Assembly: GCA_021785065.1 (NCBI GenBank)
Contig: JAJYGQ010000017.1
Span: forward strand, 925-64,924
Source: a bacterium
GTDB taxonomy: Bacteria > Patescibacteriota > Minisyncoccia > Phycocordibacterales > JAKAEA01
DNA: 64,000 nucleotides
Direction: 5' to 3'
A program made the translations under genes and the position numbers. Under the pieces are notes generated by a model, which was not told where the DNA came from, did no database searches, and was given only the letters and a program-made list of their open reading frames with translations. How positions within the stretch are numbered: position 1 is the stretch's first letter; every line of letters begins with the position of its first letter. Positions 4,223 to 38,073 of this stretch are shown one piece after another.

Positions 4223-4750
4223 ATGGCATTTTCTAGCCCGATAGATATTCTTTCACGATTCGGTCTTCACGAAGGACACGTTGTTGCCGATCTCGGTGCG
4301 GGATCGGGGTTCTATACGCTTGCTGCGGCGAAATTGGTTGGTGAAGGCGGTAAGGTATATGCCATTGAAATTCAAAAAGAAGTGCTCGCTCGGCTTGTGC
4401 AGCATGCTCGCCAGGAGCATCTTAAGCATCTTATTTTTATTCATGGTGATGCTGAAAAACCCCAAGGAAGTACCATTGCTGACAGCATGGTTGATGCGGT
4501 ACTGCTGTGTAATGTCCTGTTCCAAACAGAGCAAAAAGCAACATTGCTAGCAGAAGCAAAACGGATTCTCAAACCAGGCGGACGGGTGCTTGTGGTTGAT
4601 TGGGCGGGTAGTTTTGGGGGGACTGGTCCGCAGCCGCAATATGTGGTGATCTCCGATATGGCTCGAGAGCTTTTTAAGCGTGCTGGTTTTGCGGAGGTAG
4701 GTCCTATTCCCGCTGGTGACCACCACTGGGGCTTTATTTTTAGAAAATAA
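4223..4750 (+). CDS. Class I SAM-dependent methyltransferase
   Basis: Motif I is VVADLGAGSGFYTLAAA and motif III-like is ILKPGGRVLVVDW. 175 aa. Confidence 0.65.
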   Translation: MAFSSPIDILSRFGLHEGHVVADLGAGSGFYTLAAAKLVGEGGKVYAIEIQKEVLARLVQHARQEHLKHLIFIHGDAEKPQGSTIADSMVDAVLLCNVLFQTEQKATLLAEAKRILKPGGRVLVVDWAGSFGGTGPQPQYVVISDMARELFKRAGFAEVGPIPAGDHHWGFIFRK

Positions 4751-4751
4751 C

Positions 4752-6080
4752 ATGCTGAGAAAAAAGAACACTAGCGGTATTGCAATGTTTCGCGTCATTT
4801 TACTCGTAGTATTCGGTGCTTTTATTGTAGCTGGAATTTTTTCTTTTGCTTTGTACCGTGGTGGCTCCTCAAGTCAGATGCCCACTATCATCATTTGGGG
4901 CACACTTGATCAAGGTACGATGAGTACACTCATTAACAAAGCAGCTGGCACAAAAGCAAATATCCAATATGTACAAAAAGATCCGACGACATTTAACAGT
5001 GATCTCGTTAATGCGGTAGCTGTTGGTACCGGTCCTGATGTTATTTTAGGTACCCAGGATCAAATTTTTTCAAACAGTAAATTACTCACTATTATTCCTT
5101 ATACCAGTTATCCGCAGCGTACGTTTCTCTCAACATTTATTCCTGAAGCTGATTTGTATTTAGAGTCACAAGGTCTTCTCGCGATTCCTATTGGTGTCGA
5201 TCCACTTATTATGTACTGGAACCGAGCACTCTTTTCTAATGCTGACATTGCTACGCCGCCGACCACGTGGGACCAACTTGTTTCGCTTGTACCCAAACTT
5301 ACCGTAGCCGATAAATCCTACAATATTAGCCAGAGTACAGTTGGTATGGGAGATTACGTGAATGTACAGAATGCACAAGCTATTCTCTCGCTGCTTATGC
5401 TGCAGGCCGGTAATCCTATTGTGAGTATTGATCCAAATGGCAATCTCGTAGCCGCAATTGGAGGAGGAAGCAGTGAGGCTACCGCTGCCGCAAACGCTCT
5501 CTCGTTCTACACACAATTTGCCGATCCCACCTCAGCGACATATAGCTGGAACCGGGCACTCTTGAATTCGCAAGATATGTTTATTGCTAATCAGCTTGCT
5601 ATATATTTTGGTTTTGCCAGTGAGTACAACACTCTTTCGCAGAAAAATCCTAATCTTGATTTTGATGTAGCGACGGTCCCGCAGTTTAGTAAAAATACTA
5701 ACGGCCAATTGGGCGGATCGGGACAATACACCACCTTCGGTAATCTCTACAGTTTTGCTATTCTTCGTCAGTCGCCCAATGCCGCCGCCGCTCTCACTGA
5801 TATTCTCACGCTCACCTCGCAAAACGCGGCGACATTATGGAATTCTTTTACGGGATTACCAGCCGCTCGACTCGATTCTCTAGCGGTTAATCCTGCCAAC
5901 CCAATTGAGCCAATTCTTAGTCAGTCGGCGTTATGGGCTCGTGGCTGGATTGATCCTAATCAAAGTGCAACGAGTCAAATTTTCCAGTCTATGGTAGATA
6001 GTGTTACGTCTGGTCAAGCGGGTCCTTCGCAAGCGGTAATTACTGCGCAAAGTGAACTTAGTACCGCTTTGCAACAATAG
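4752..6080 (+). CDS. Membrane-anchored extracellular solute-binding protein (ABC-type SBP family 1-like, probably sugar or oligosaccharide binding)
   Basis: The track ORF opens at a GTG at 4716, but the first ATG at 4752 lies directly after the preceding stop. It has an N-terminal TM helix, then GTGPDVILGTQDQIF and NPNLDFDVATVPQ segments typical of SBP_bac_1 proteins. No permease or ATPase gene is adjacent. Confidence 0.45.
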   Translation: MLRKKNTSGIAMFRVILLVVFGAFIVAGIFSFALYRGGSSSQMPTIIIWGTLDQGTMSTLINKAAGTKANIQYVQKDPTTFNSDLVNAVAVGTGPDVILGTQDQIFSNSKLLTIIPYTSYPQRTFLSTFIPEADLYLESQGLLAIPIGVDPLIMYWNRALFSNADIATPPTTWDQLVSLVPKLTVADKSYNISQSTVGMGDYVNVQNAQAILSLLMLQAGNPIVSIDPNGNLVAAIGGGSSEATAAANALSFYTQFADPTSATYSWNRALLNSQDMFIANQLAIYFGFASEYNTLSQKNPNLDFDVATVPQFSKNTNGQLGGSGQYTTFGNLYSFAILRQSPNAAAALTDILTLTSQNAATLWNSFTGLPAARLDSLAVNPANPIEPILSQSALWARGWIDPNQSATSQIFQSMVDSVTSGQAGPSQAVITAQSELSTALQQ

Positions 6081-6081
6081 T

Positions 6082-6573
6082 ATGAAAATTTCCATTAAAA
6101 AAATCACCCACATCACAGCGATCTTGCTTGTTTCGGGGATTATCGTAAGTGTTTCTGGTGTTGCGCTTTCGGTGATGGCTGCTCCACAGCCGCCGCTCAC
6201 AAGCGTTGGTGGTTTGGTGCCGTGTGGTAATGGTAGCGGCGCGCAATTAAGTAATAAAAATGGCACCACTAATTTTTATGCTACTGGTAATACTGCTTCA
6301 ACGACCGCTTGCGATTTCGCTGGCTTTGTTGATCTCGTTAAAAACGTTACCAACTTTCTTATTATCCTTTCGGCGCCAATTTTTGTTGGTATTATGATAT
6401 GGGCTGGCATTAAACTGCTTTTAGCACCTGCGAGTCAAGAACAAATTAAAAGAGTTAAGCAGGTTCTTTTTGATACGCTCATCGCCTTTATTATTATTCT
6501 TGCTGGTTGGCTTATTGTGCATGTGATAGCAACAGCACTCTTTAATTCGTCATTTAATATGTTTCAACCATAA
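6082..6573 (+). CDS. Small secreted two-helix membrane protein, VirB2/TrbC-like pilin family; paralog 1 of 5
   Basis: It has a signal peptide and a Cys pair (CGNG...C). Two C-terminal hydrophobic helices (IILSAPIFVGIMIWAGIKLLL and LIAFIIILAGWLIVHVIATALF) are separated by a charged loop (APASQEQIKRVKQ). The ATG at 6082 follows the upstream stop at 6078-6080. Confidence 0.45.
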   Translation: MKISIKKITHITAILLVSGIIVSVSGVALSVMAAPQPPLTSVGGLVPCGNGSGAQLSNKNGTTNFYATGNTASTTACDFAGFVDLVKNVTNFLIILSAPIFVGIMIWAGIKLLLAPASQEQIKRVKQVLFDTLIAFIIILAGWLIVHVIATALFNSSFNMFQP

Positions 6574-6578
6574 TTACT

Positions 6579-7061
6579 ATGATTCGTTATATTTCAAGAG
6601 GATATCTTATTTTTAATATTATTGCGGTGTTTGCGCTCTTTTTTGTTTCGGCGTTGCCGTTGTACCACGCCTCGGCAAATTCACTTCTCAATACCAACAC
6701 CACCCAAAGTCAAGCTGCCTCCTCAAATACAAACACGAGTGGTACGGGCATGGACCTCAATCCATTTAAGGGTGGAACGCTTTGTGACTTTTTAGTAACG
6801 TTACTCGACATTATTACAGAGATCGCGGCGATAGTGGGTGTGCTCGTGCTTATCGGTATTGGCTTTTACTACATACTGGCGCAGGGTAATAAAGAAAAAC
6901 TAGCGACGGCGCACCGTGCTCTTTTTGTAAGTATCATTGCTATCACATTACTTCTTGGCGCGTCTGTATTTGCTCATATTCTCATCACTACGGTTAACGC
7001 AGTTCTTGCGGCTGGCGGCGGCGGGTTTGCGAATCAATCAGCGCTGACGTGTTCACCGTAA
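6579..7061 (+). CDS. VirB2/TrbC-like pilin family protein; paralog 2
   Basis: Signal peptide. The layout CDFLVTLLDIITEIAAIVGVLVLIGIGFYYIL, loop AQGNKEKLATAHR, then ALFVSIIAITLLLGASVFAHIL resembles mature A. tumefaciens VirB2. Confidence 0.45.
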   Translation: MIRYISRGYLIFNIIAVFALFFVSALPLYHASANSLLNTNTTQSQAASSNTNTSGTGMDLNPFKGGTLCDFLVTLLDIITEIAAIVGVLVLIGIGFYYILAQGNKEKLATAHRALFVSIIAITLLLGASVFAHILITTVNAVLAAGGGGFANQSALTCSP

Positions 7062-7107
7062 ATTTTGCGAAGTATGTTATTATTAAAAAACCAAATAATT
7101 CCATAGT

Positions 7108-7521
7108 ATGACCAGCCTGCAACAACTCGTTGATTCACTTATAAAATTAGCAAATACTATAGTACCTCTTCTGCTTTCTGTTGCGGTTATTGTCTTTATT
7201 TGGGGAATAATTCGCTATCTCTGGATTCGTCCCGATAGTCCCGATGAACGAAAGAATCTTCGGAATTTTTTAATTATGGGGGTTATTGCTATTACGGTAA
7301 TTCTATCTATTTGGGGATTATCAACAATGCTTAAAAATACTCTTTTCCCCTCTGCGCCTTGTCCGGTCGGTGTAGCAGGCTGTGGATCGTCGGCCGCGAC
7401 ATCAGGTGGTCCTAGTAGTCCTAATAGTTCCAACAGTTCTAGTAATCCTTCCGGCGTTCAATATAATAACGGTACCTACTACCAGACACAGCCTACTTCT
7501 CCTTTAATACAAGGTGTGTAG
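7108..7521 (+). CDS. VirB2/TrbC-like pilin family protein; paralog 3
   Basis: Helix TIVPLLLSVAVIVFIWGIIRYLWI, loop RPDSPDERKNLR, then NFLIMGVIAITVILSIWG, plus a Gly/Ser/Asn-rich tail. Confidence 0.45.
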   Translation: MTSLQQLVDSLIKLANTIVPLLLSVAVIVFIWGIIRYLWIRPDSPDERKNLRNFLIMGVIAITVILSIWGLSTMLKNTLFPSAPCPVGVAGCGSSAATSGGPSSPNSSNSSSNPSGVQYNNGTYYQTQPTSPLIQGV

Positions 7522-7644
7522 TCGAAATTTGCCTTCAAAGATATCCACAATGCTAGCGATTTGCTTGCTTGCATTTACCAGAGGGCCCCGTATACTTAAA
7601 GTAAATAAAACGTCGTTATTTACACGGCCATTAATTTTAAAAAA

Positions 7645-8073
7645 ATGAGAAAAATTATTTCTTCCGTTGGGCTTATCGCAGGTGGTCTCGTTGCTGTAGC
7701 CGCACCGCTTGTAGCGTTTGGACAACAAAACAATATCGGCTCAGCAGGACAGGGCGCTCTCTACCAATTAAATGGTGTCGTGGGTTCAACGGGAAGTTTG
7801 GTGGCAACATCAAATAATGTCCTTAATATGGTAGTGGGACTCTTAATTACCCTTGCGGTCATTGTCTTTATTGTTAACGTCATTAGATTTGTCTTGAGTA
7901 AAAACGACGAAGAAGCAAGAAAGAATGCCAGAAAATACCTGATCTGGAGCGTTATTGCTATTGCGGTTATTATTGGACTTTTCGGAATTGCAAAACTTCT
8001 TTTGGCGACGTTTGGTATCAACGGTAATAATCTTCAGCAGTCCGATATTCCCACCACACCAATCTATCAGTAA
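7645..8073 (+). CDS. VirB2/TrbC-like pilin family protein; paralog 4
   Basis: Signal peptide. Helix VVGLLITLAVIVFIVNVIRFVL, loop SKNDEEARKNARK, then YLIWSVIAIAVIIGLFGIAKLLL. Confidence 0.45.
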   Translation: MRKIISSVGLIAGGLVAVAAPLVAFGQQNNIGSAGQGALYQLNGVVGSTGSLVATSNNVLNMVVGLLITLAVIVFIVNVIRFVLSKNDEEARKNARKYLIWSVIAIAVIIGLFGIAKLLLATFGINGNNLQQSDIPTTPIYQ

Positions 8074-8085
8074 TCTCCACCCGCG

Positions 8086-8439
8086 GTGAGCATCCCTCAA
8101 TCTTTGGCGGCTACAGGTGTTATTTCAGGAAGTCCTTATTACGCTGCTATACGTGATGATGTGGTAATGCCCATCATCTACCTGGCTTTTGCGGCGGCTC
8201 TACTTGTCTTTATTTGGGGAATGATTCGCTACCTTGTTGCGCTGCATAATGGAGCGGCAGATGAAAAACGTCAGGCAGGGCAGCGACATATGATTTGGGG
8301 CGCCATCGGCATCGCCATCATGATCTCTGTTTTTGGAATTATGCAATTTATTTGGGGCACACTGGCGAGTTTGCCGGGTGGAAGTCAGGGGTTTAATGGC
8401 CAAACAGCGACGCCGCCACCGGAAATCAACGGCTTGTAA
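8086..8439 (+). CDS. VirB2/TrbC-like pilin family protein; paralog 5
   Basis: Helix MPIIYLAFAAALLVFIWGMIRYLVA, loop LHNGAADEKRQAGQRH, then MIWGAIGIAIMISVFGIMQFIWG. It shares the IWG.IRYL motif with paralog 3. Confidence 0.45.
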   Translation: MSIPQSLAATGVISGSPYYAAIRDDVVMPIIYLAFAAALLVFIWGMIRYLVALHNGAADEKRQAGQRHMIWGAIGIAIMISVFGIMQFIWGTLASLPGGSQGFNGQTATPPPEINGL

Positions 8440-8533: not shown

Positions 8534-9508
8534 CTACTGGCGGTGTGTGAACCAGTAGTAAACTCGCCCCCAACAGGGAGAGGAGAAGATGATTCTGGAG
8601 GGAAGGGGAGATATGGATAACCTCTCTCTTCTCCAACCTTCTCTCCATCTCCTTCGGCCCAGCCTATAATAGACTGGGGCCCGGTTTGTGGGGGAGAACA
8701 GGACGTTAATCTTGTTCTCTCTCCGCACAACGGGAGAGATGTTCATGGTGAACACCTCCCCCGGCCACAGCGTCACCTCGTATGCTAGTGGCTGCCGATG
8801 CCGCGGCGCTTTGCGCCGCGGCGGGGGTGCCAGCGGAACCGCTGGCGAAACTGGCGGTGGCATAACCACTGTCGGTTTTGGAGACGGTGGCGCCTGGTGC
8901 ACCACCGTCCGCTGGTTATTGTTAACGTTCTTCACATTAACAATAAACGCGGGTGTCGTTGGTTGTGGCGCTGGCACCACTACCGCGTTTGGTGGCGGCA
9001 GTGGAGAGGTCATCATCACAACTGGTCGTTGTAGTGCTCCCGTCACTGCGGCTACGAGCCACATTACCAGCAGCACAGTCAAGACACTACTGGTGATGAT
9101 GATAATCCACCACCACCATACCGCTCGAATCAGCAATGATACTGCTACTCCGAGCGCGACCGTTGCCACCACGATCCAGAAAAGGATTGTGGTGGGGGGC
9201 ACTACGACTGCTATGAGCAGCAGTAGTAGTGCGCTGGCTATGATAGCCAGCGCGATCTTGCCCGCCAGATCCCACCACCGGTTTGGTGGTGTTGCTGACG
9301 GAGCCGCCGGAGTTGGTGTGGGTGGGGTGCTCCCACCCGAAGCCGGATTACGACGTACCATTTTTTTCTCCTTTTTCTTGGTCCTACTACCGCTTCCTTT
9401 TTTATTAGAAGAAGCGGTAGCGGATGGTTTACCTGTTCCAACTTTCACTGTGGTCACATTGACCACAGTGACTTCAACTCCCCCTTCGGGGCATTTCGGT
9501 TTTGGCAT
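8534..9508 (-). CDS. Hypothetical proline-rich membrane protein
   Basis: An RBS-like aaaagggg lies 8 nt upstream of the ATG at 9508. Three predicted TM helices sit among Pro-rich low-complexity stretches. The C-terminal ~60 aa are Arg-rich and look odd. The antisense ORF 8688..9524 was judged the shadow frame. Confidence 0.35.
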   Translation of the reverse strand: MPKPKCPEGGVEVTVVNVTTVKVGTGKPSATASSNKKGSGSRTKKKEKKMVRRNPASGGSTPPTPTPAAPSATPPNRWWDLAGKIALAIIASALLLLLIAVVVPPTTILFWIVVATVALGVAVSLLIRAVWWWWIIIITSSVLTVLLVMWLVAAVTGALQRPVVMMTSPLPPPNAVVVPAPQPTTPAFIVNVKNVNNNQRTVVHQAPPSPKPTVVMPPPVSPAVPLAPPPRRKAPRHRQPLAYEVTLWPGEVFTMNISPVVRRENKINVLFSPTNRAPVYYRLGRRRWREGWRRERLSISPLPSRIIFSSPCWGRVYYWFTHRQ

Positions 9509-9591
9509 TGCCTGCCCCTTTTAAAAAACAAATCAAAGATCAATACACACCGGCGCGTATTATATAAAATCTATAAAGAAATGTCAAGAGG

Positions 9592-9674
9592 TGGGCGGGG
9601 AGGGACTTGAACCCTCAACCCCTTGCGGGACATGGTCCTAAGCCATGCGCGTCTGCCAATTTCGCCACCCGCCC
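9592..9674 (-). tRNA. tRNA-Leu (anticodon TAG)
   Basis: The reverse complement folds as a type II tRNA. The acceptor stem is gggcggg/cccgccc. The anticodon arm catgg-cttagga-ccatg gives TAG, with a long variable arm, the T-arm gaggg-ttcaagt-ccctc, and discriminator A. Confidence 0.9.
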
Positions 9675-9935
9675 ATTTTTTAAGTGATATTTTTAGAACA
9701 TCAACTTTAAAAGGTAGATAAAATGTAGCACATAATGAGAAAATAATATATAAAAGCTTGACAAAGCTTTGTATTACAAAGTAGGATGGCGGAAGGTTGC
9801 TCTATATTTAGATGACCACAGTTTTGTGAGGAATTTTGTCTTAATATATTAGCGATTTCTTAATTTTTCATACGCGATGTTATGTAACAATGTCGCAATG
9901 TTACTGTCAATGGTTTCGTAATTTACATTTTTAGT

Positions 9936-12900
9936 ATGCCGGTTTTATTAAGGGTGCACATAATTATTATCTCTATGCAAAAATTTAAAAGTTACGTTGG
10001 GCAATTCTGTACGACCCATCGCCAGATAGCGAAAGGGTTAGCTTTTGCGTTTGTCACTGCGCTTTTAGCAACGGGCGGTTTCGCAGTGCATGCCGCATAT
10101 GCTGACTCAGCGACACTCGGCGTGACTCAAATTACGGCGGTGAAGACGTACGCTACTGCTGATGACACTTACGCTAATGGTTGGGAGTGGATATTCGACG
10201 TTACGGTTCCCAGCAACCAGACGCTGTTGCAGATGAAATTTGCTGACTGGACGAATGGTACGAGTGTTATTCCCGCCGCCAACAATATTCAATTTTATTC
10301 TCAGCAATCAACTAACGCTTCCGACGAAGCGCACGCTATTCCTATTACCGCTGCCGACACCTATAGCGGCATTATGTATATCAACCCCAACACTGATCTT
10401 AACGTCAATCAGGCTGGCCGACAGATTCAAATTGTTGTTGAAGCGCGTATTCCCACCGGTTCAACGGGCGGCTCATATTCAACAAGTTACGGCATTAACA
10501 CCACCGCGACCTCAACTATCTCTCTTAGTGATTTAACCCAGACATACGACTCTACGGCGAAGTCGGTGACAGTAACTACTGATCCATCGGGTTTGGCGAC
10601 GCAAGTCACCTACAATGGCTCAGCTACAGCACCAACTGCCGCTGGTACCTATACTGTTGATGCGGTAATAACCGATCCTAATTACACGGGCACTTCTACT
10701 GCGACATTGACTATTAATCCGGCGCAGGTGGCGGTGGTAGCAAATCCTCAAACGAAAGTGTACGACGGTTTGACTACAACCGATCCAGCGTTGACTTACA
10801 CAGCCACCCCAGCGCTCTTCGGTAGCGACACCTTCACAGGCGCGCTCACGCGTACTGCAGGAGAAGGCGTTGGTTCCTATCCCATAACTCAAGGCACACT
10901 CAAACTCGACAGTAACTACGTATTGAACTTTAGTCCGTCGACGTTCGTTATTACCGCCCAGCCTGCAAAAGTGACACTCGGCAACTTGAATCAAGAATAT
11001 GGTTCAACCACTCCGGTTACGGTCACGACAGATCCTTCAGGCCTTGCGACGAGTGTGACGTATAACGGCTCACCGACGGTGCCGACTAATGCGGGCAGTT
11101 ATACTGTTGTCGCAAAAATTACTGATCCTAATTACACGGGCAGCTCGACCGAGACACTCGTTGTTGCGCCGCGACCCATCACTGTTACCGCTACTACCGA
11201 CGACAAGATTTATGACGGCACGACTGCAGCAACTAGCACGCCAACTATCACTTCTGGATATCTCGTTGGTTCTGACACCGCAACACTGACTGAGGCTTTC
11301 CAAAATAAAGACGCGGGCACTGGCAAAACTCTTATCCCGAGCGCAACTATTAGCGATGGTAATGGCGGTGCCAACTACGCGGTTACTCTCGTAAACAATA
11401 CCACCGGCATTATTACATCTGCTCCTGCAACTATTTTAGCGACTGGCGTTGATAAAACATATGATGGCACAACGGCAGCGACAGTTAATTTGAAAGTGCT
11501 TGGTGCCGTTCCTACTGACAGTCTCTCGGCCACCGGCGATGCGGTCTTCGACGGTTCTAATGTTGGACCACACACTATTAATGTAACGAATATTGTGGTT
11601 TCTGGCACAGGCGTTACTTCAAACGATTATTCGTATAACACCTCAACATCTACTACAGCGACTATCAATCCAGCCTCGCTTACTATTACCGCCGATAATG
11701 AATCGAAGACATACGGCGACACCTACACATTTAACGGAACTGAATTTAACGCGACGGGTCTTATAAAAGGTACAAGTGACTCAGTGACATCGGCAACGCT
11801 GACTAGTGCTGGCACTGTAGCAAGCGCGGCTTTTGGAACCTACCCGATCAATATCAGTAATGTTGTTGGTACGGGATTAAGCAATTACAACATTAGCTAC
11901 AATCCAGGAACGTTGACGGTGGGCACCAAGACCGTTACTGCTACCATTACCGCCGAAAGTAAACAGTACGATGGCACTAACACGGCTGACATCACAAGTT
12001 GTACGGTAAACGGCGCGGTAAATGGCGACAATCTTACTTGCACGGCTTCAAATGGAACCTTTAGTGATAAGAATGTTGGTAATGGTAAGACTGTTACTGC
12101 CGATGTTACGCTTGTTGGCACAAATGCCGGTAACTACACCCTGACGTCTCCCGTTACTACAACAGCGAATATTACTGCAGCACCTCTCACGGTAACTGCT
12201 GTGACTGATAACAAAATTTACGACAGCACAGTTGCGGCAACGGGCACGCCATCTATTACCGCTGGCTCTCTTCAGGGTACCGACACCGCAACATTTAGCG
12301 AAGTATTCAAAACAAAAGACGTTGGCAGTAACAAGACACTCATTCCATCCATTTCTATCGATGGTGGGACAGGTAATAGTAACTACAACATTACCTACGT
12401 AAACGATACGACAGGTGTCATCACCGCGCGCCCGCTCTTAGTGACCGCAAAAGGTGTTGATAAAGTCTATGACGGCACCACAGACGCCACAGTAACTCTC
12501 TCTGACAATCGCATTGCTGGTGACAAGCTTACCGACAATTACACCACGGCAACATTTGCCAGTCCGAATGTTGGCAACAATATACCAATTACCGTGACAG
12601 GTATTAGTATTAGCGGTACTGATGCGGGTAACTACACGCTGACCGACACTTCTACAACAACGGCCGCCAATATTACCCCAGCGAAACTCACGATTTTGCC
12701 GTACGGTGTCCAGAAAGTTTACGGTGATGCGATCACGCTGCCAGTACTTCCTCCAGGATTCTTCTCACAAGGTTTACAGGGAACTGATAAGGTGACCTCA
12801 GTAGACCTAACCAGCGCCGGCATCACTTCAACGGCCATCGTTGGAAAATATGACATCTTTGCTAAAGATGCAGTGATTTCGCCTTCCACAAGCTTTGCTA

Positions 12901-14306
12901 ATTACGACATTCAATATGCGACGAATACACTTACAGTAACTAAAGCGCCACTTCTCGGAAAAATTCTCGCATCTAATAAGACGTATGACGGCACCACTGA
13001 TGCCAGCACCACCTGTACCTTTACGGGAATTCTCAATGGCGACAACGTAACCTGCACCACTTCAAACGCTGCATTTGCAACTCGAAACGTTAGTAGCACC
13101 ACGGTGACCGCCGATCTCAATCTCTCTGGTCCTGATGCAGGCAATTACGGAATTAATCCAACAGCAACCACCAACGCTTCTATTAATCCGCTCGCCCTTA
13201 CGGTGACTGCTGTACCGAACACTAAAATTTATGATGGCACCACTGCCGCCGCCGCTCTTCCGACGTTCACGCCCACAATACTCGGTCAGGGCGACACTCC
13301 CGACTTCATAGAGACCTATGACACGGCGACCGCTGGTATAAACAAAACACTAACACCAAGTGGGGTAGTGAATGACGGCAATAATGGTAAAAACTACACG
13401 TACAAATATGTTTCTGTGTCTACTGGCGTTATCTCGAAAGCTAATCAAACTGTTTCTTTCGTTAAATATCCAAGCGGTACTATTAGCGGAAATTCCTTTA
13501 CCGTTAGCGCGACATCAACGTCAGATTTGCCGGTTACCTTTACTGGTGGCACGTCGGGTGTTTGCAGCGTCAACGCCGATGGTACAGTAAATGTTCTAGG
13601 ATCTGGACAGTGTAATGTTATTGCCGAGCAGGCGGGTAATGCTGATTACAATCCCGCATCAACCAATATGACGTTTAGCGTGGTGTATAACGTAACACCT
13701 ACCACAATCACTATTTCATCTGTCTCTCCATCCGCGGCCGCCACCGGCTCTAACGTCACCATCAACTGGACTTCGACGAATGCTCCCACCGGGTCAGCGG
13801 TAGCGCTCACCCTCTTCAATAGTAGCGGTAACGAAGTGGGTGTCTTAACTAAAGACGCCGATAGTACTGGAAGCTATGTTTGGAGCATTCCTACTTGTGT
13901 GTCAGGTCCATCGGGCCCGGGTAGCGGTGGCATTATTCCTATTACCTCCTGTACGCCTACCGATAGCAGCGGTGTCTACGAGACGCCCGTGGGCAACTAC
14001 ACTATTGTAGCCAAGCTCTATACACCGAAAGGTGGCTATGGTGATGGTATGATTGCCCCTTCACCTTCTCTCCAAACTCTCGCGACTTCAGCAGCAATGC
14101 CGTTTACGGTGATACCTGCTCCGACCACTAGGATTGAGTCGTCGCTTAGTTTTGCTGCGCCGTTAATGGTTTCCACCTCAACATCAACGCCATCAACGCC
14201 ACCAACACCAACTTCAACTCCTCCGACTATCGATACTACTTCTACAACCACACCCACAACCGCACCCACAACAACAAGCACAAGCACCTCGACGCCAACG
14301 AAATAG
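9936..14306 (+). CDS. Giant secreted surface protein or adhesin with about ten tandem YDG/MBG-type Ig-like repeats and a Thr/Pro-rich C-terminus
   Basis: 1456 aa. The signal peptide (LAFAFVTALLATGGFAVHAAYA) sits best if the start is the Met at 9975. The unit K(V/I/T)YDGTT...Y.I..G.L....NY.I......LT(I/V) recurs, for example KVYDGLTTTD, KIYDGTTAATSTP, KTYDGTTAATVNL, KQYDGTNTAD, KVYDGTTDATV, KTYDGTTDAST and KIYDGTTAAAALP. The tail reads STSTSTPSTPPTPTSTPPTIDTTSTTTPTT. Confidence 0.8.
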   Translation: MPVLLRVHIIIISMQKFKSYVGQFCTTHRQIAKGLAFAFVTALLATGGFAVHAAYADSATLGVTQITAVKTYATADDTYANGWEWIFDVTVPSNQTLLQMKFADWTNGTSVIPAANNIQFYSQQSTNASDEAHAIPITAADTYSGIMYINPNTDLNVNQAGRQIQIVVEARIPTGSTGGSYSTSYGINTTATSTISLSDLTQTYDSTAKSVTVTTDPSGLATQVTYNGSATAPTAAGTYTVDAVITDPNYTGTSTATLTINPAQVAVVANPQTKVYDGLTTTDPALTYTATPALFGSDTFTGALTRTAGEGVGSYPITQGTLKLDSNYVLNFSPSTFVITAQPAKVTLGNLNQEYGSTTPVTVTTDPSGLATSVTYNGSPTVPTNAGSYTVVAKITDPNYTGSSTETLVVAPRPITVTATTDDKIYDGTTAATSTPTITSGYLVGSDTATLTEAFQNKDAGTGKTLIPSATISDGNGGANYAVTLVNNTTGIITSAPATILATGVDKTYDGTTAATVNLKVLGAVPTDSLSATGDAVFDGSNVGPHTINVTNIVVSGTGVTSNDYSYNTSTSTTATINPASLTITADNESKTYGDTYTFNGTEFNATGLIKGTSDSVTSATLTSAGTVASAAFGTYPINISNVVGTGLSNYNISYNPGTLTVGTKTVTATITAESKQYDGTNTADITSCTVNGAVNGDNLTCTASNGTFSDKNVGNGKTVTADVTLVGTNAGNYTLTSPVTTTANITAAPLTVTAVTDNKIYDSTVAATGTPSITAGSLQGTDTATFSEVFKTKDVGSNKTLIPSISIDGGTGNSNYNITYVNDTTGVITARPLLVTAKGVDKVYDGTTDATVTLSDNRIAGDKLTDNYTTATFASPNVGNNIPITVTGISISGTDAGNYTLTDTSTTTAANITPAKLTILPYGVQKVYGDAITLPVLPPGFFSQGLQGTDKVTSVDLTSAGITSTAIVGKYDIFAKDAVISPSTSFANYDIQYATNTLTVTKAPLLGKILASNKTYDGTTDASTTCTFTGILNGDNVTCTTSNAAFATRNVSSTTVTADLNLSGPDAGNYGINPTATTNASINPLALTVTAVPNTKIYDGTTAAAALPTFTPTILGQGDTPDFIETYDTATAGINKTLTPSGVVNDGNNGKNYTYKYVSVSTGVISKANQTVSFVKYPSGTISGNSFTVSATSTSDLPVTFTGGTSGVCSVNADGTVNVLGSGQCNVIAEQAGNADYNPASTNMTFSVVYNVTPTTITISSVSPSAAATGSNVTINWTSTNAPTGSAVALTLFNSSGNEVGVLTKDADSTGSYVWSIPTCVSGPSGPGSGGIIPITSCTPTDSSGVYETPVGNYTIVAKLYTPKGGYGDGMIAPSPSLQTLATSAAMPFTVIPAPTTRIESSLSFAAPLMVSTSTSTPSTPPTPTSTPPTIDTTSTTTPTTAPTTTSTSTSTPTK
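10441..13400 (+). repeat. Intragenic tandem coding repeats (about 270-nt units, diverged) inside the adhesin gene
   Basis: DNA motifs such as acggcacgactgcagc, tacgacggcacaacggcagcgaca and tatgacggcaccactgatgcc recur at roughly 90-codon spacing. Confidence 0.5.
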
Positions 14307-14328
14307 TGTTGTATAATAAAAATCATCT

Positions 14329-14946
14329 ATGAACATGAACACTTTACTAAAAATCTCATTTTTTTCGGCCGCGACAATTGGTCTTTTGACCTTTAGCCTG
14401 CAGGCCTCCGCGTCTTCTGTAGGGGGAACTCTAACGCCTGGTGGCGGTCTTAGTGGTGTTGGTGTCACCGGTACGGTGGTTACGCCCCCTATCGCCAATC
14501 CTAGTGCTGGTGTCTATACCTCGACGCAAAATGTCACCCTGACGGCCAGCGGCGCCTCGAGCATTCACTTTACGACTGATGGATCCTCACCAACTTGCTC
14601 TACTGGTACGGTTTATTCGAGCGCTATTTCGGTAAGCGTCTCGCAGGTAATAGAAGCTATTTCCTGCTATCCGGGTAACGCCTCATCGACGGTTGCCTCG
14701 TATTTGTACGCGATTAATCCGGGTTCAACCGGTGGTGGCGGGGGTACAACAGGCAGTCCAATTTCGTCACCTAATATCGGCACCACGGGTGGTACAAGTG
14801 GCAGCCAAATCATAGGTATTGCCGATTTTATTCTGCTTATGGAAAACTGGGGTCAAACTGGTCTCGGTAATCCGGCGGACTTCAATAAAGATGGTGCGGT
14901 GAACATCGGCGACTTTATTTGGCTTATGAGTAATTGGAATCAATAA
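14329..14946 (+). CDS. Secreted protein with a CHB_HEX_C-like (Fn3/Ig-like) domain and a C-terminal dockerin-like module
   Basis: Signal peptide. VYTSTQNVTLTASGASSIHFTTDGSSPTCSTGTVYSSAISVS matches the chitobiase/beta-hexosaminidase C-terminal domain signature. The C-terminus reads ADFILLMENWGQTGLGNPADFNKDGAVNIGDFIWLMSNW, a D.N.DG.VN..D calcium loop with a flanking helix, as in dockerin. Confidence 0.6.
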   Translation: MNMNTLLKISFFSAATIGLLTFSLQASASSVGGTLTPGGGLSGVGVTGTVVTPPIANPSAGVYTSTQNVTLTASGASSIHFTTDGSSPTCSTGTVYSSAISVSVSQVIEAISCYPGNASSTVASYLYAINPGSTGGGGGTTGSPISSPNIGTTGGTSGSQIIGIADFILLMENWGQTGLGNPADFNKDGAVNIGDFIWLMSNWNQ

Positions 14947-14951
14947 AATTT

Positions 14952-15677
14952 ATGAATACTAAAAAAATTATTTTTGCTGGCGTAATTACAACTCTCGGCG
15001 TGTTTGCTGTTGCTCTTCCGGCTTTCGCGGCAACTACTGCGTCATTTGTGCCAACTCCTATCAAAGTGGCTACGGGACAGCAATTCAACGTGGTGGTTAT
15101 GGTTAACCCGCAAGGCGTAAAAAATTACGCGGAAAAAGTTGAGGTTGATTATCCTGCCAATCTTCTCCAGGTCATCTCGTTTACACCGGGTAATAGTTGG
15201 ATGACGCTTCAGCAGCCTGGTTATGACTCTATAAACAACAACACGGGCGTGATGATTAAAACAGCTGGCTACCCGACAGGATTTTCATCACAAACACTTT
15301 TCGGTACCATTTTATTTACCGCTAAAAAAGCTGGCAGCGGCACTATCGCTATCGATAATCAATCGATTGCGTTTAAAGCGGGTGCTCAAACTACGACGCT
15401 TACGGGCACTCCGGCGCCGTTTACTATTAGCGTTGCTACTGTACCCGCGGCAAGCACAACTCCCGCTGCTCTTGCTCCGGTTTCTACGGTTAACGGTCAG
15501 GCGATTGCCACCGCTACAACTCCCGCTGGTCTCGCTTCTACCGCTAATTCACAACTTGCGGCCGCTGCCGCAAACGCCGGTGGCGTAGCCTACTGGGTCT
15601 GGATCCTGCTCGTCATCGCGATTATTCTCGTTATTGTACTCTTCATTCTCTACCGCAACCGAAAGGGAAAGATGTAA
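14952..15677 (+). CDS. Membrane-anchored cohesin-domain protein
   Basis: The track ORF starts at a TTG at 14934; the ATG at 14952 gives MNTKKIIFAGVITTLGVFAVALPAFA, a signal peptide. The stretch IKVATGQQFNVVVMVNPQGVKNYAEKVEVDYPANLLQV...LFGTILFTAKKAGSGTIAIDNQSIAF follows the cohesin beta-sandwich pattern (F.V.V......V.YD...L, then LATI.F.A). Then a Thr/Ala linker and the C-terminal TM anchor VAYWVWILLVIAIILVIVLFILYRNRKGKM. Confidence 0.55.
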   Translation: MNTKKIIFAGVITTLGVFAVALPAFAATTASFVPTPIKVATGQQFNVVVMVNPQGVKNYAEKVEVDYPANLLQVISFTPGNSWMTLQQPGYDSINNNTGVMIKTAGYPTGFSSQTLFGTILFTAKKAGSGTIAIDNQSIAFKAGAQTTTLTGTPAPFTISVATVPAASTTPAALAPVSTVNGQAIATATTPAGLASTANSQLAAAAANAGGVAYWVWILLVIAIILVIVLFILYRNRKGKM

Positions 15678-15685
15678 AAATATAG

Positions 15686-15758
15686 TCCGCCCAGCAGGAT
15701 TCGAACCTGCGACCGTTCGCTTAAGAGGCGACTGCTCTACCAACTGAGCTATGGGCGG
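15686..15758 (-). tRNA. tRNA-Lys (anticodon CTT)
   Basis: Reverse complement ccgcccatagctcagttggtagagcagtcgcctcttaagcgaacggtcgcaggttcgaatcctgctgggcgga. The D-arm is gctc-agttggta-gagc, the anticodon loop ctCTTaa, the T-arm gcagg-ttcgaat-cctgc, and the 7-bp acceptor is fully paired. Confidence 0.9.
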
Positions 15759-23329: not shown

Positions 23330-23878
23330 TTATTGTGTGTTGGCGGCTCGAGCAACTGAAGCTACGGTGGTGGCGAGGGCAGCTCCTGAAGATAGATCAG
23401 CGGTATCTAGTGTGGGGTTCCAGAAAATATATTCAATATCGTGTTTCGCTGAGCGCCACGGGTGCTCGATGGGGCAGCCGGTCTTTTCGCTATTGCTGAT
23501 AGCGGTGTCGTGACCGATATAAAAACCGATGTGGCCGTGCATTTCGCCGCCGCCGAAATCAACTTTTTTCCACACAATGACACTGCCGACGGGCGGCTCG
23601 CTTTCTCCCGGTATCTCATGCCAGCCACTTTCTTGAAGATCTTTGATAGTGGAACCGACAGTGGCGTGCGATTTTTTTATTAATGCCAGGGCAGCGAGTA
23701 CCGAGGAAACAAAATAGGCGCAGGAAAGCTGGCCATCGCGGCCAACGTCAGTTTTAACACCGTCAACGAGAGCGTAAAAGTTGCGATACATTCGCGTACC
23801 GACGCTATTTTTTATAACGGCCAGGTAACTGTCGCGTAAGAGGAATTTGATTGAAGGCTGTTTTTGCATTCTATTCAT
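23330..23878 (-). CDS. Hypothetical protein, possibly a papain-like NlpC/P60-CHAP superfamily hydrolase
   Basis: The track ORF runs to 24028 but overlaps tRNA-Tyr; I trimmed it to the internal ATG at 23878 (MNRMQKQ). A candidate catalytic Cys (LSCAYFVSSVL) and His (GHIGFYIGHDTAIS) are arranged as in NlpC/P60 and CHAP. No signal peptide. Confidence 0.35.
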   Translation of the reverse strand: MNRMQKQPSIKFLLRDSYLAVIKNSVGTRMYRNFYALVDGVKTDVGRDGQLSCAYFVSSVLAALALIKKSHATVGSTIKDLQESGWHEIPGESEPPVGSVIVWKKVDFGGGEMHGHIGFYIGHDTAISNSEKTGCPIEHPWRSAKHDIEYIFWNPTLDTADLSSGAALATTVASVARAANTQ

Positions 23879-23893
23879 TATACTACGTTTGGG

Positions 23894-23977
23894 TGCGCAG
23901 GGAGGGATTTGAACCCCCGTAGCCCGTAGGGCGCCTGATTTACAGTCAGGTGCAATTGACCACTCTGCCACCTGCGC
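23894..23977 (-). tRNA. tRNA-Tyr (anticodon GTA)
   Basis: Reverse complement gcgcaggtggcagagtggtcaattgcacctgactgtaaatcaggcgccctacgggctacgggggttcaaatccctccctgcgca. The anticodon arm cctga-ctGTAaa-tcagg gives GTA, with a long variable arm and an intact acceptor gcgcagg/cctgcgc plus A and CC. Confidence 0.9.
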
Positions 23978-24043
23978 GTTTATACCTACACAAGCTTGTA
24001 TTCTAGTCGCAAAAGCAGTTATAATCAAGTCTATTAAAATTCG

Positions 24044-26684: not shown

Positions 26685-29600
26685 ATGGAATCTCCAGAAA
26701 AACCTTCTTCAGCAGATAATCTAAAAGATGAAGTATCCCAGGTTGAACAAGACAAGGAGATAGATAAAAAAAGTCTGGAACTTTCTCCTACGAGTGGGCA
26801 ACTAATTGGTAAGGAAGTTATAAAGCATGAATATGCCCGCGCAGATTGGAAAAACAGGCGAGAATTGTCGGATACTTTTCGTACGGGGACCGATGTGATT
26901 GATAGATTAGTGCAGGAGTATTTGGACCTGCATCCTGAGGCGAAATCAGAGGACATCGAAACAGCTAAGAAAAAAGAAACTGGCTTTGTTACTGTCTACT
27001 ATTCTCCCAAGGTGCAATCGTATCTTGAGGAAAAGTTACGAGTATCGTTGCCACCTAGTAACTGGGTACCATTCCCAATTCTTGTTGAAAAGCTGGGTAT
27101 TTCTGCTCCTACTGTTGTCAAATTAGTGAATGCTTATTCTAAAGATTTTCCGAAGATTGCTCAGACAGAAACCGGTACATACAAAGAAGAGAAGGGGCAT
27201 AGGCGGTTATTTTATTCACCTCTATTTGCTGAGTTGCTAAAAAAAGAGTTTGATAAATACCCGGCCGCACCTCAGAATTGGAAGACCCAGATGCAAATGG
27301 CCTCTGAAGAGGGTGTTGATTTCGCACGCCTAGATAAATTTTTAAAAGAGTATTCCATGCAACATTCCCAGGAAGAACATAAGGGTATGTTTCGAAATGG
27401 GCGCAATCAAGTATATGAGCATTATTCACCGCAGGTAGCTGCGTATATACATCAAGAATTACAACGGTACGAAGACACCCCTGAAGGATGGATAAATAGA
27501 AACAAACTCGCTAAAAGACTCAATGTTGTCGATGCGACCGTCCAAAGAATTATCGATAGCTACCTAGCAACCCACCCTAATTCGAAGGATGTTAAAAAAG
27601 CAAAGAGTGATAGGGGGCTGGTTCTTAATGTTTTCTCGCCCGTTATCCAAGAATATGTCGCGGCTACACTGGCTGCTTCTTTAGAAAGTCGCAATAAAGA
27701 GAAAGAACCAGAACCTTCCGCGCCAGAAGACTGGAAGATGGTCAGTGATATTGCAAGTGAGTTAAAAGTAAGCAGAGACATAGTAACAAAAACCATCAAA
27801 GAATATTTTCAGACTCATTCTGAGGAAGGTAGTAAGAAAAAATATCCTGCGACAACTTCTTGGAAGACAGGAAGTATTGTTACTAGACCCGTTGTTCATT
27901 ATTCACCAGCTGTTGTTGATTATTGTCGAACGGTAATTGAAGGCTTAAAAAGCAATATGGCTCAAGAAGGATGGTTAACAGTAAGCGATCTTCAGGAAGT
28001 TCTCGGAATATCGTGGACGACTATAAATTCGTTAATAAAAAAATACCAGACACAAAGCACGGACCCCCAGCTCCCTAAGAGACGTAGAAATCCAAGGGGA
28101 AAGATGTGGAAATATTATCCACCGGTAGTTGTAGAATGGTTAAAAAACGAGGTGGCAAAACATCCCCGTGCACCTAAAGACTGGAAAATTCTTGGCGAGC
28201 TCTCAGAGCAATTTAGTGTCTCCCAGGATACTCTCCGGCGTTTAGTCGAAAGACAGGCAGCGTTAAATCCTGACAGTGTCGTGATCAAAGAACTCAGGAA
28301 TGATCGAGGTGTTGTGTGCACCTTTTACTCACCAGAGACCATATTGCAACTCAAACAGTCTCTTGAACAGCATACTAAAGGGAAAAGTGAGCTTGAGAAC
28401 AAGTTAACAGGTCTCCTTGCAAACCCTGAAAAGGAGGAAGGTCGCAAATTCCGTGAAATGCTCGGACTCTTCGGTCCTTCTAACTTTCTAGATATACTCT
28501 ATGTCTTGCATCCAGAGTTTAGGGATCTTCCGGTAGACCATGTTAAGGGGAAATTAACAGAATATCTTGGTAACTACCTGTTAACTGCTATACCATTTTC
28601 AGTAGATGCTCTCGAGAAAAACCTACCGTCCTTAAAACAGGAAAACCTAAGACGCGGTCTTGCCGAGGTTATAAAGGGTGATTGTCTCAATTTTTATTTG
28701 CTTGAAAAAAAGCAATCGCCTCTTAGGGATGATCTTGAGATATTTCAATTGTATTTTGACGATTTAACTTCAAGGACAGCGAATAACCAAAACCTCGACC
28801 TCAATCAAGTAGTAGCAGAAGTCAGGGAATATTATCAATCAGTTACAGGTTCGTGGGTGAAACCGACAAGGATCATTGAATCCCTAAGCGCTGATAGGCC
28901 GTTCCCCGACATTTATCAGCAAATTAATCGGCAGGAAATCAAAGATAAGAAACGTCTTCTTATTGCTGACGAAATGGGGGTAGGTAAAAGCGCTTCCGTT
29001 ATTCTTGCTAAAGAATCATTGGGAGTAAAAACCGCTCTTGCTGTAGTTCCTAGTAATGTTGTTGCTACATGGGAAAAATATCTTTCTGATACTGTTGGTG
29101 ATGATGGTCGACAGCTAGGCTATTTTAAGCCCGGCCAAGCACCGAGGGTGCTTACTATACGTAGCTCTGACGATCTTATGCGTCTTAACGATGGCTATGA
29201 TTACATTCTTATTTCACAAGAACGTTTGAATGATGCGAACGCTGAGGAGCTTCAAAAACTTGATTACGGAATGCTTATTGTAGATGAAGTCCATAAACTT
29301 AAAAATGTTCGTGATGGTAAGCGAGCAAATCATCTACTAAACCTAGCCGAAAAAATAGAAGGAGATGATAAGTACTTAGTAATGCTTTCGGGTACACCTG
29401 TGCCAAATAAAGTTGAAGATGTTGCAATGCTGCTTAAACTTTTGCATCCCGACCGTTTTGCCCAGGAAGATAGTAAGCGTCTCGTAAGCGCCATTTTGAA
29501 TGGCAGTATTGTCAATATACGTTCTTTGCTCATACCGCACATGCAGATGAAAGGCTTGGCTGAACACGTAGAAATGCCAAACCTTACAGAGGCTACCATT

Positions 29601-31964: not shown

Positions 31965-32660
31965 TTAATCAAGATTTTTTATCGCTGCTTCCATATTGCT
32001 CAGGTTAGCAAACGGCGGATAGACGACGCCGTTGACGATGAGGAAGGGCGGTGTGGTGGTGGCGGGAATAGGGGGAAGCGCGATAAGACTTTGCACGGCT
32101 ACCCAATCGTCATTGTAATTAAAGGAGTAAATGTGAGCGCCGGGATACTGCTGCTTGATGGCTTGCAAAATGTAACCCTGACCGACGCATTGGGCGCAGG
32201 TGCCGGTGGGATAGAAATATAAAATAAATGGACGCGTCGTGCTGTTGGGGATTTTGCAGTGATGGGTGATGGTCTGTTCTAAATTGTAATCTTTAATTTC
32301 CATGAGCGAATAATAGCGCTCGAGGCGGAAGAGATCGGGATTATCGGGGCCGAGCTGGCCTTGTAAAAAGGAGAGTTTACTCTGCAGATCATTGAGGCTA
32401 GCGGCGATGCTTGCAGCAGTCGTGGTGGCTGATGCGCCGGCGCTGGTGGTGGACGCGCAGAGTGAGGCGTTGAGATTGGCGGTCAAGATATCGGTTCGTG
32501 CTTGCAATGCGAGAATTTGGGTGGCAATGGCGTCCTCCTCGTTTTTGACCGCGGCAGTTTTTTGGATATTGATGTAGGTGCTGATGAGCCACGCGCCAGC
32601 AAAAATCACAATAGTGATAATGAGTGCAGCGATATAGAGTTTAATGGGGATACGTTTCAT
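31965..32660 (-). CDS. Membrane-anchored thioredoxin-fold protein with a CxxC motif (DsbA-like)
   Basis: N-terminal TM helix, a coiled-coil-like segment, then ILYFYPTGTCAQCVGQ with a CAQC active-site-like motif and downstream cis-Pro-like features. Confidence 0.45.
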   Translation of the reverse strand: MKRIPIKLYIAALIITIVIFAGAWLISTYINIQKTAAVKNEEDAIATQILALQARTDILTANLNASLCASTTSAGASATTTAASIAASLNDLQSKLSFLQGQLGPDNPDLFRLERYYSLMEIKDYNLEQTITHHCKIPNSTTRPFILYFYPTGTCAQCVGQGYILQAIKQQYPGAHIYSFNYNDDWVAVQSLIALPPIPATTTPPFLIVNGVVYPPFANLSNMEAAIKNLD

Positions 32661-32681
32661 TTCGTGCTGTGTGCATGCTAG

Positions 32682-34034: not shown

Positions 34035-34057
34035 TTTGGGCTATAATCAGCCGTACT

Positions 34058-35197: not shown

Positions 35198-35285
35198 AAT
35201 CTCTGTCTTTTCTAGGTCCTTTGTGCTAGAATATAAGCTATAAAAGCGCTTGCTTCGGCGAGCGCTCGATAATTTCTTAATCTAA

Positions 35286-37992
<2,707 letters not shown>

Positions 37993-38073
37993 TTGACAAT
38001 TATTTTACATATGGTACAATAAGTCCGACAGTTAAAGATCGGGTATTTTAGGAGTTTAATTTTAAAAACTACC

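Follow-up and report, generated by a model that had tools for sequence, protein, structure and literature searches.

A tandem array of five VirB2-like pilin-family genes next to a predicted oligosaccharide-binding protein gene in a Patescibacteria genome

The 64-kb window analysed here (the whole stretch of 64,000 nucleotides from the 67.7-kb contig JAJYGQ010000017.1 of a Patescibacteria genome) contains a tandem array of five genes, named g1 to g5, whose products are, by profile comparison, VirB2-like members of PF18895, a pilin family of type IV secretion systems (T4SS). Sequence comparison with relatives gives a pattern of old paralogue classes, each specific to its position in the array, and indicates distinct roles kept by selection. 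The array directly follows the gene of a MalE-like solute-binding protein (SBP), and the order methyltransferase-SBP-class 1-class 2-class 3/4 (1-4 copies)-class 5 is a deeply conserved string and probably an operon. The original prediction, made from the DNA letters alone, recognised the pilin-like array and missed this tight, conserved coupling to the upstream SBP-type gene. The window represents ordinary chromosomal DNA from a reduced genome, with genes for gyrA, gyrB, IF-2, ClpB, Pol III alpha subunit, SMC, RNase R, topoisomerase I, ThrRS, PheRS, ParB, a sortase and seven tRNAs, and the array sits at a conserved housekeeping site between gyrA and rbfA/infB.

The five genes are consecutive on the plus strand (Table 1), as originally described, and independent gene callers gave the same calls in other assemblies of the same organism, with one of them shortening g5 to 90 amino acids (aa). 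The sizes first given, 117-173 aa, hold as 117-163 aa with the ATG start of g1; 173 aa is reached by g1 only with a GTG at 6052, which falls inside the upstream gene. The intergenic gap is 1 nucleotide (nt) between the SBP gene and g1, followed by 5, 46, 123 and 12 nt along g1-g5. Hydropathy and a five-protein alignment showed that two segments of about 30 residues, both strongly hydrophobic, flank a short loop rich in K, R, E and D in every protein; in g1, hydrophobic segments were found at residues 7-35, 88-118 and 124-157. Together with the AlphaFold2 model of g4, in which a disordered N-terminal part precedes a helical hairpin (H48-84 and H89-122, predicted local distance difference test (pLDDT) score about 85), these data show the presence of the PF18895-type two-helix transmembrane hairpin of about 70 residues with a short charged loop. 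The elements of a hairpin topology are therefore in place in g1-g5 as predicted from sequence and model: two transmembrane helices and a K/R-rich loop fitting the positive-inside rule.

Whereas hairpin and loop are common to all five, the signal peptide that the original prediction had assigned to every protein was found only in g1, g2 and g4, as a Sec-type N-terminal sequence with AxA-like sites. The first residues of g3 and g5 form the amphipathic segment ahead of helix 1, their open reading frames (ORFs) are not extendable upstream, and the leaderless state is kept in their orthologues. The motifs quoted at first (FIWGIIRYL, LIGIGFYYIL and GLFGIAKLLL) are present in the proteins, and the description as diverged paralogues is borne out by a common Pfam family and by global identities of 23-27% between g1 and each of g2-g5, with paralogue pairs inside the window reaching at most 54 bits in BLASTP.

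PF18895 (T4SS_pilin) is the best Pfam match for all five proteins, with a gathering cut-off of 26.6 bits (Table 1). Since all five match one Pfam family, their resemblance is not due to chance. The search for T4SS pilin profiles gave a divided result: PF18895 is passed by g3, g4 and g5, but the TrbC/VirB2 profile PF04956 (cut-off 27.9 bits) matched g2 alone among the window proteins, with 14.1 bits and E 0.057. For orthologues from nine lineages, with Pfam matches counted at E ≤ 0.01, PF18895 was found in 43 of 46, PF04956 in 10 (best E 6.2e-8) and CagC in one, the position-2 orthologues in other lineages carrying PF04956 matches. Since the PF04956 matches fall in orthologues, the VirB2/TrbC relationship holds at the family level and not for single window proteins. 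In addition, g1-g5 all match NF045849, the Mbov_0395 family of pilin-like conjugal transfer proteins from Mycoplasma integrative and conjugative elements, all below its cut-off of 40 bits, the best being g4 with 36.1 bits and E 3.7e-9.

The family is large: a profile of 40 sequences matched 74,166 cluster representatives at E ≤ 1e-3 and 16,455 at E ≤ 1e-10 among 1.84 billion, and a genome-contig scan with a narrower family alignment returned one relative, the metagenome-assembled genome WY1.bin115. Many of the best 150 family matches contain 2-16 hairpin repeats. Three such "polypilins" from the representative library, P0163 (368 aa), P0168 (552 aa) and P0239 (1775 aa), each consist of one uninterrupted chain, with 3, 6 and 16 PF18895-like hairpins in tandem, respectively, and the N-terminal GPCG...C motif of P0168 resembles class 1 (g1).

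Type IV pilins were considered and rejected, as no class III G/FTLIE motif occurs at the five N-termini and no pilin or N-methylation Pfam family was matched; the original choice of a VirB2-like T4SS pilin over a type IV pilin agrees with this and with the PF18895 ranking. The proteins could also be unrelated small membrane proteins (holin, bacteriocin-immunity or generic two-transmembrane types) that are pilin-like by composition only, of which the holin-like and immunity types had been raised at first. Two-helix hairpins are structurally non-specific, and g1 and g2 score under the Pfam cut-off. However, no holin or immunity protein family was matched in PHROGs, where the only match at E ≤ 0.01 was a weak one of g2 (E 0.0059) to a family of unknown function, and the window neighbours of the array are housekeeping genes with no phage or bacteriocin genes among them. 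Given also the frequency of PF18895 among the orthologues and the location from gyrA to rbfA/infB, this explanation is hardly credible.

The gene upstream of g1 encodes a protein with a clear SBP fold, for which sequence and model predict a MalE-type oligosaccharide binder. It matches the Pfam family SBP_bac_1 with E 6e-15, and its AlphaFold2 model (pLDDT 90.8), in which residues 2-26 form an N-terminal membrane helix, retrieved oligosaccharide-binding SBPs and MalE in Foldseek at E of about 1e-21, including mannooligosaccharide, trehalose/maltose, acarbose and beta-1,2-glucan binders. Homologues of about 40% identity are named after the Patescibacteria group, Candidatus Paceibacterota, Minisyncoccia or Parcubacteria, so that the window probably belongs to the Paceibacteria/Parcubacteria part of the candidate phyla radiation. 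Relatives were found on contigs of 0.5-1.0 Mb, the closest homologues of g4 and of the five-protein profile on contigs of 0.5-0.63 Mb. In the window, the SBP gene is preceded by the methyltransferase gene and, before that, by gyrA.

The same arrangement was found in relatives. In the gene tables of nine lineages, all have (gyrA)-methyltransferase-SBP followed by five PF18895-type genes, or by six in one lineage, with SBP identities to the window protein from 74% down to 37%. The methyltransferase gene is directly upstream of the SBP gene in eight related lineages (40-70% identical), and the string is retained in one locus in which gyrA is displaced by an integrated element. A scan of Joint Genome Institute metagenomes with the SBP alignment gave more than 535 relatives, from which 80 loci were kept for local hidden Markov model (HMM) searches; 43 loci with at least 3 kb downstream of the SBP gene were testable for the array. 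Pilin-like ORF counts in these loci are lower bounds, since some divergent classes fall under the HMM threshold. At least two pilin-like ORFs directly follow the SBP gene in 43/43 loci and at least four in 36/43, with five and six as the commonest counts. The first one starts within 25 nt of the SBP stop codon in 30/43 loci, and SBP gene and array often overlap in relatives. In 58 of 62 metagenomic loci, the SBP gene is immediately preceded by the methyltransferase gene. Among 74 flanking ORFs of at least 450 aa in the metagenomic loci, 55 are gyrA, IF-2 or SBP, and the other 19 are unrelated (MurJ, penicillin-binding protein, Mur ligase, ABC exporter, P-type ATPase, MurA-like, SPFH-like or without a family); VirB4 or VirD4 was found in none of the 74.

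Many related arrays are followed by two further genes on the opposite strand, one for an SPFH/Band_7-like membrane protein (27 loci) and one for a protein of about 500 aa in which a lysozyme-like domain (SLT_3) is weakly matched (8 loci); examples of these downstream genes are L031 13420-14880 (-), L010 13542-14744 (-) and L029 12087-13619 (-). Neither was detectable in the window or in its nearest relative. In the window, the convergent gene after g5 encodes a Pro-rich protein of 324 aa with several hydrophobic segments and a W-rich stretch. It was considered as a part of the module and rejected, as it has no family match and only its C-terminal 100 aa are conserved, with 47% identity to the nearest relative's gene at that place.

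Each array gene has its own counterpart in relatives. When g1-g5 were compared with three relatives by BLASTP, the best match was always at the gene's own position, with 93-223 bits (93-197 for g2) against at most 60 off the diagonal. Identity to the orthologues is 44-65% for g1 (assigned by position), 50-66% for g3 and 53-75% for g5. With the nearest relative, g1-g5 share 65-80% identity over whole proteins, 78-84% in the hairpin cores and 47-74% in the exposed tails, compared with 91% for gyrA, 79% for IF-2, 74% for the SBP and 70% for the methyltransferase. Class-specific HMMs on the metagenomic loci found class 1, class 2, one to four copies of class 3/4 and class 5 last, and this order is conserved across about 50 loci, for about 90 lineages examined overall. 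In most related loci the array begins with class 1 and ends with class 5, and the order is retained where the neighbouring gene is only about 40% identical. The classes also keep features of their own: VPCG...C ahead of helix 1 in class 1, a Cys just ahead of helix 1 and a second near the C-terminus in class 2, and CPxGxxGC past helix 2 in class 3, while classes 3 and 5 are leaderless throughout. Since leaders and Cys motifs are class-specific, the classes are not equivalent.

These data bear on the suggestion in the original prediction of an antigenically diversified array. In such a case, g1-g5 would be interchangeable major pilins for antigenic or host-range variation, as proposed for the VirB2 paralogues of Bartonella and Anaplasma, by analogy with which host versatility was suggested for patescibacterial arrays (PMC12102498). 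The low identity between paralogues (about 25%), the faster evolution of the exposed N- and C-terminal tails relative to the cores, and the change in class 3/4 copy number from 1 to 4 between lineages would fit. However, every paralogue has a positional orthologue, the order is kept at deep divergence, the classes are unlike in architecture, the cores are about as conserved as IF-2, and the low scores between window paralogues give no sign of recent duplication or gene conversion. Positional orthology and deep conservation of order therefore point to ancient classes and not to recent antigenic diversification, and variation of this kind is regarded as very improbable.

The statement made at first that the window holds no T4SS component was confirmed, as no T4SS family was found among its ORFs of at least 110 aa, a few of which have no Pfam match of any kind. 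Within 10 kb, the gene tables of the nine lineages likewise list neither a T4SS family nor an ABC permease or ATPase, so that ABC importer partners of the SBP (BPD_transp or ABC_tran) are missing over that distance. Secretion ATPases are frequent in the phylum: VirB4 is present in 2417 of 3035 Patescibacteria assemblies, and VirB2-like genes (PF18895/PF04956) occur in 1948 VirB4-positive assemblies and lie near virB4 in 1135 (PMC12102498). The same study reported 441 VirB2-like arrays, each with 2-11 pilin genes that are on average 25% identical. By transposon sequencing, SEML1_0014-0019, the PF18895 array within the Southlakia epibionticum T4SS cluster, is essential (PMC10633639), and it has been highlighted as a possible pilus in a monoderm (PMC12857230). 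The accessions of the relatives studied here, for which the VirB4 status was sought, are not among the supplementary tables of PMC12102498.

The interpretation that we favour, with a confidence slightly better than even, is that g1-g5 form a heteromeric envelope-spanning or pilus structure, assembled by a distant VirB4-type T4SS, with the MalE-like protein as a partner. Each hairpin would insert in the cytoplasmic membrane so that its two ends face outwards and its basic loop faces inwards, a topology proposed because of the positive-inside rule and the signal peptides in classes 1, 2 and 4. The g1, g2 and g4 products would follow the Sec route with signal-peptide cleavage, and g3 and g5 would insert without a leader. 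The subunits would then be extracted from the membrane into one heteromeric envelope-spanning structure or pilus. The likeliest assembly machine would be the VirB4/VirB6-type T4SS that most Patescibacteria have elsewhere in the genome, usually near dnaA; it is proposed because the family as such is linked to virB4 clusters and because VirB4 has a base rate of 80% across the phylum. The classes would occupy separate structural roles (base, shaft, tip) and would not be interchangeable antigenic variants. The sugar-binding-type protein, presumably co-translated, would be a likely partner, either as a host-glycan receptor or adhesin or for substrate capture.

Several observations weigh against this interpretation. 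VirB4, VirD4, VirB6 and PrgI were not recognised among the window ORFs searched, and in about 90 related loci (9 gene-table lineages and 80 metagenomic loci) neither VirB4 nor VirD4 was found over 8-10 kb. An invariant SBP coupling is, to our knowledge, not a feature of any described T4SS. None of g1-g5 reaches the PF04956 cut-off, and two of the five proteins have no signal peptide, unlike canonical VirB2/TrbC. The g4 model matched nothing in the PDB at E ≤ 0.001 in Foldseek, returning only non-specific helical proteins (14-3-3, ferritin-like), so that no solved VirB2 or TraA pilin was significantly matched; the family profile likewise retrieved no solved pilin from PDB sequences. Since the hairpin is too simple and non-specific for a fold search, likeness to solved VirB2 structures is not demonstrable in this way. 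Alignment with genuine VirB2 was also faint. Eight annotated VirB2/TrbC genes from conjugative plasmids, each between virB1 and virB3, served as reference, and hhalign placed 46 array proteins in register with them over 62 columns, from the "NIxxF" pre-helix segment to the end of helix 2, with P 0.0022 and a probability of 13%; the five window hairpin cores alone gave no match. Finally, pili built from these proteins have not been observed in any Patescibacterium, and the role of the S. epibionticum T4SS was described as "completely unknown" (PMC11665869).

Some of the same data could be explained by a fixed T4SS-independent hetero-oligomer of the membrane and cell wall, in which five hairpins and the MalE-like protein would serve for capture or uptake of host oligosaccharides with no VirB4 involved, in the manner of a bindosome or as a novel type of SBP-dependent conduit. 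Without exception, an SBP gene closely adjoins the array, often with overlap, its model confidently predicts an oligosaccharide-binding fold of the MalE type, T4SS genes are absent within 8-10 kb in the related loci, and no ABC permease or ATPase is listed in the nine gene tables. The fixed class order would imply fixed stoichiometric roles, and the fused polypeptides of 3, 6 and 16 hairpins would fit a side-by-side bundle. The Sulfolobus bindosome (PMC3047682) may serve as a loose precedent by analogy, but its pilins are type IV pilin-like and not VirB2-like. In addition, the family is tied to virB4 clusters in more than 1000 genomes and is essential beside the S. epibionticum T4SS (PMC12102498, PMC10633639), such a complex would have no evident energy source or permease, and gene adjacency alone does not imply physical interaction. 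A complex independent of a T4SS is consequently considered unlikely.

A related proposal goes further: the MalE-like protein and the five hairpin classes could constitute an undescribed bindosome-like or pilus-borne device for sugar capture or uptake in candidate phyla radiation bacteria of the Paceibacteria type, either independent of VirB4 or as an import-side extension of the T4SS. This is judged distinctly unlikely. If true, it would give the essential patescibacterial T4SS/pilin system a concrete substrate class, namely host-surface oligosaccharides. Patescibacteria account for much of bacterial diversity and live on the surface of host cells to which they attach, and their T4SS and pilin array proved essential in the single species examined for this. 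In a large lineage of them, the pilin-like genes are a fixed five-class set tied to an oligosaccharide-type binding protein and set apart from the secretion ATPase. If the SBP coupling is functional, it would provide a testable hypothesis on what the apparatus recognises or takes up, and would argue against antigenic variation; if it is conserved synteny only, the array would be one more ordinary example of a published type.

Other features of the window are included in Table 1. Beyond the convergent gene downstream of g5, a set of surface-protein genes is bracketed by tRNA-Leu and tRNA-Lys genes and encodes, in this order, a large YDG- and MBG-repeat protein, a CHB_HEX_C/Fn3_assoc protein and a cohesin-like protein. 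The set recurs in another assembly of the same organism, is absent at that position in the nearest relative, and may be a strain-specific adhesin island adjoining the pilin array. The gene of a fusion protein with winged helix-turn-helix, SNF2-type helicase and S-adenosylmethionine (SAM) methyltransferase domains lies in the region of lowest GC content of the window (0.38-0.44, at 26-32 kb), which may be a defence or mobile island. A region of high GC (0.51) and strong GC skew (0.14-0.20) surrounds a GT2 glycosyltransferase gene and pheS. Since the 5' end of an ORF with a weak CHAP-domain match overlaps a tRNA-Tyr gene, its true start is placed further downstream. The sortase gene, which agrees with a monoderm envelope, is followed by an ORF of 312 aa without a family match that may encode a sortase substrate.

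Table 1. Position and properties of the array genes, their upstream neighbours and other features of the window
Feature	Position	Strand	Description	PF18895 match
Class I SAM-dependent methyltransferase	4223-4750	+	175 aa; generic methyltransferase matches only; conserved upstream neighbour	
Membrane-anchored MalE-like SBP (predicted)	4785-6080	+	431 aa from ATG; earlier GTG at 4716; SBP_bac_1	
g1, class 1 pilin-like	6082-6573	+	163 aa from ATG; signal peptide, exposed segment, VPCG...C motif, two-helix hairpin	24.0 bits, E 4e-5; slightly under cut-off
g2, class 2 pilin-like	6579-7061	+	160 aa; signal peptide, low-complexity N/S/T linker, hairpin flanked by Cys (TLCDF ... LTCSP)	15.3 bits, E 0.021; under cut-off
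g3, class 3 pilin-like	7108-7521	+	137 aa; leaderless; hairpin, CPxGxxGC, Ser/Pro/Asn-rich tail	39.2 bits, E 7.5e-10; over cut-off
g4, class 4 pilin-like	7645-8073	+	142 aa; signal peptide, Gly/Asn/Ser linker, hairpin	36.8 bits, E 4.3e-9; over cut-off
g5, class 5 pilin-like	8086-8439	+	117 aa; leaderless; final gene of the array	30.1 bits, E 5.3e-7; over cut-off
Convergent Pro-rich protein	8534-9508	-	324 aa	
Surface-protein set	9590-15758		possible adhesin island	
tRNA-Leu	9590-9674			
Surface protein with YDG and MBG repeats	9936-14306		1456 aa	
tRNA-Lys	15685-15758			
ORF with weak CHAP-domain match	23330-24028	-		
tRNA-Tyr	23892-23977	-		
Fusion protein (helix-turn-helix, SNF2, methyltransferase)	26685-31316	+	1543 aa	
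High-GC region	32001-36000			
Sortase gene and following ORF	37297-39012	+	sortase at 37297-37992	

Among the resemblances to known systems, two are functional analogies only. In the Sulfolobus bindosome, sugar-binding surface proteins are assembled with small pilin-like proteins, but these are of the type IV kind, with their own ATPase and another gene architecture. The archaeal Ced system for DNA import (PMC11868833) uses conjugation-type machinery for import, but it has CedB/VirB4 and its gene architecture also differs. Agrobacterium VirB2 and RP4 TrbC are, like the array products, small two-helix proteins with a short basic loop; g1, g2 and g4 share the signal peptide, the pre-helix "N-I/V-x-x-F" is in register in a weak alignment, and some orthologues match PF04956. 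In contrast, plasmid virB2 genes are flanked by virB1 and virB3, whereas the window array has no adjacent VirB1, VirB3 or VirB4 and its proteins have extra Cys motifs, low-complexity tails and a monoderm host. Mbov_0395/MMCAP2_0565 (NF045849) is the closest curated family outside the candidate phyla radiation, from wall-less or monoderm cells with conjugation of the Gram-positive type (MPF-FATA); unlike the five-class chromosomal array, it is a single gene in a Mycoplasma conjugation module.

The closest known arrays are patescibacterial. That of S. epibionticum ML1 (Wang et al. 2023, PMC10633639), SEML1_0014-0019, is a six-gene set described as five to six sequence-divergent, structurally similar proteins, and shares with the window PF18895, tandem divergent hairpins and a monoderm episymbiotic host. 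It differs in lying inside a T4SS cluster, near a PrgI-family gene and, according to PMC12857230, VirB4- and VirB6-like genes, whereas the window array has the gyrA-methyltransferase-SBP context with no T4SS gene within reach. The arrays of Quinonero-Coronel et al. (2025, PMC12102498) were defined as at least two PF18895/PF04956 genes, in tandem or one gene apart, with low mutual identity. The window array, with five tandem PF18895 genes of 23-27% identity in a Patescibacteria genome, belongs to them by this definition, and they share its chromosomal location. Unlike them, for which a host-range or antigenic role was proposed, it is fixed in order, coupled to an SBP gene and not near virB4. 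An SBP beside pilin arrays is mentioned in none of PMC12102498, PMC10633639, PMC12857230 and PMC11665869, and the words "solute", "SBP" and "gyrA" are absent from the text of the first. Thus, the kind of array is already published, and its SBP-coupled, T4SS-distant, fixed-order architecture is apparently new to the literature searched.

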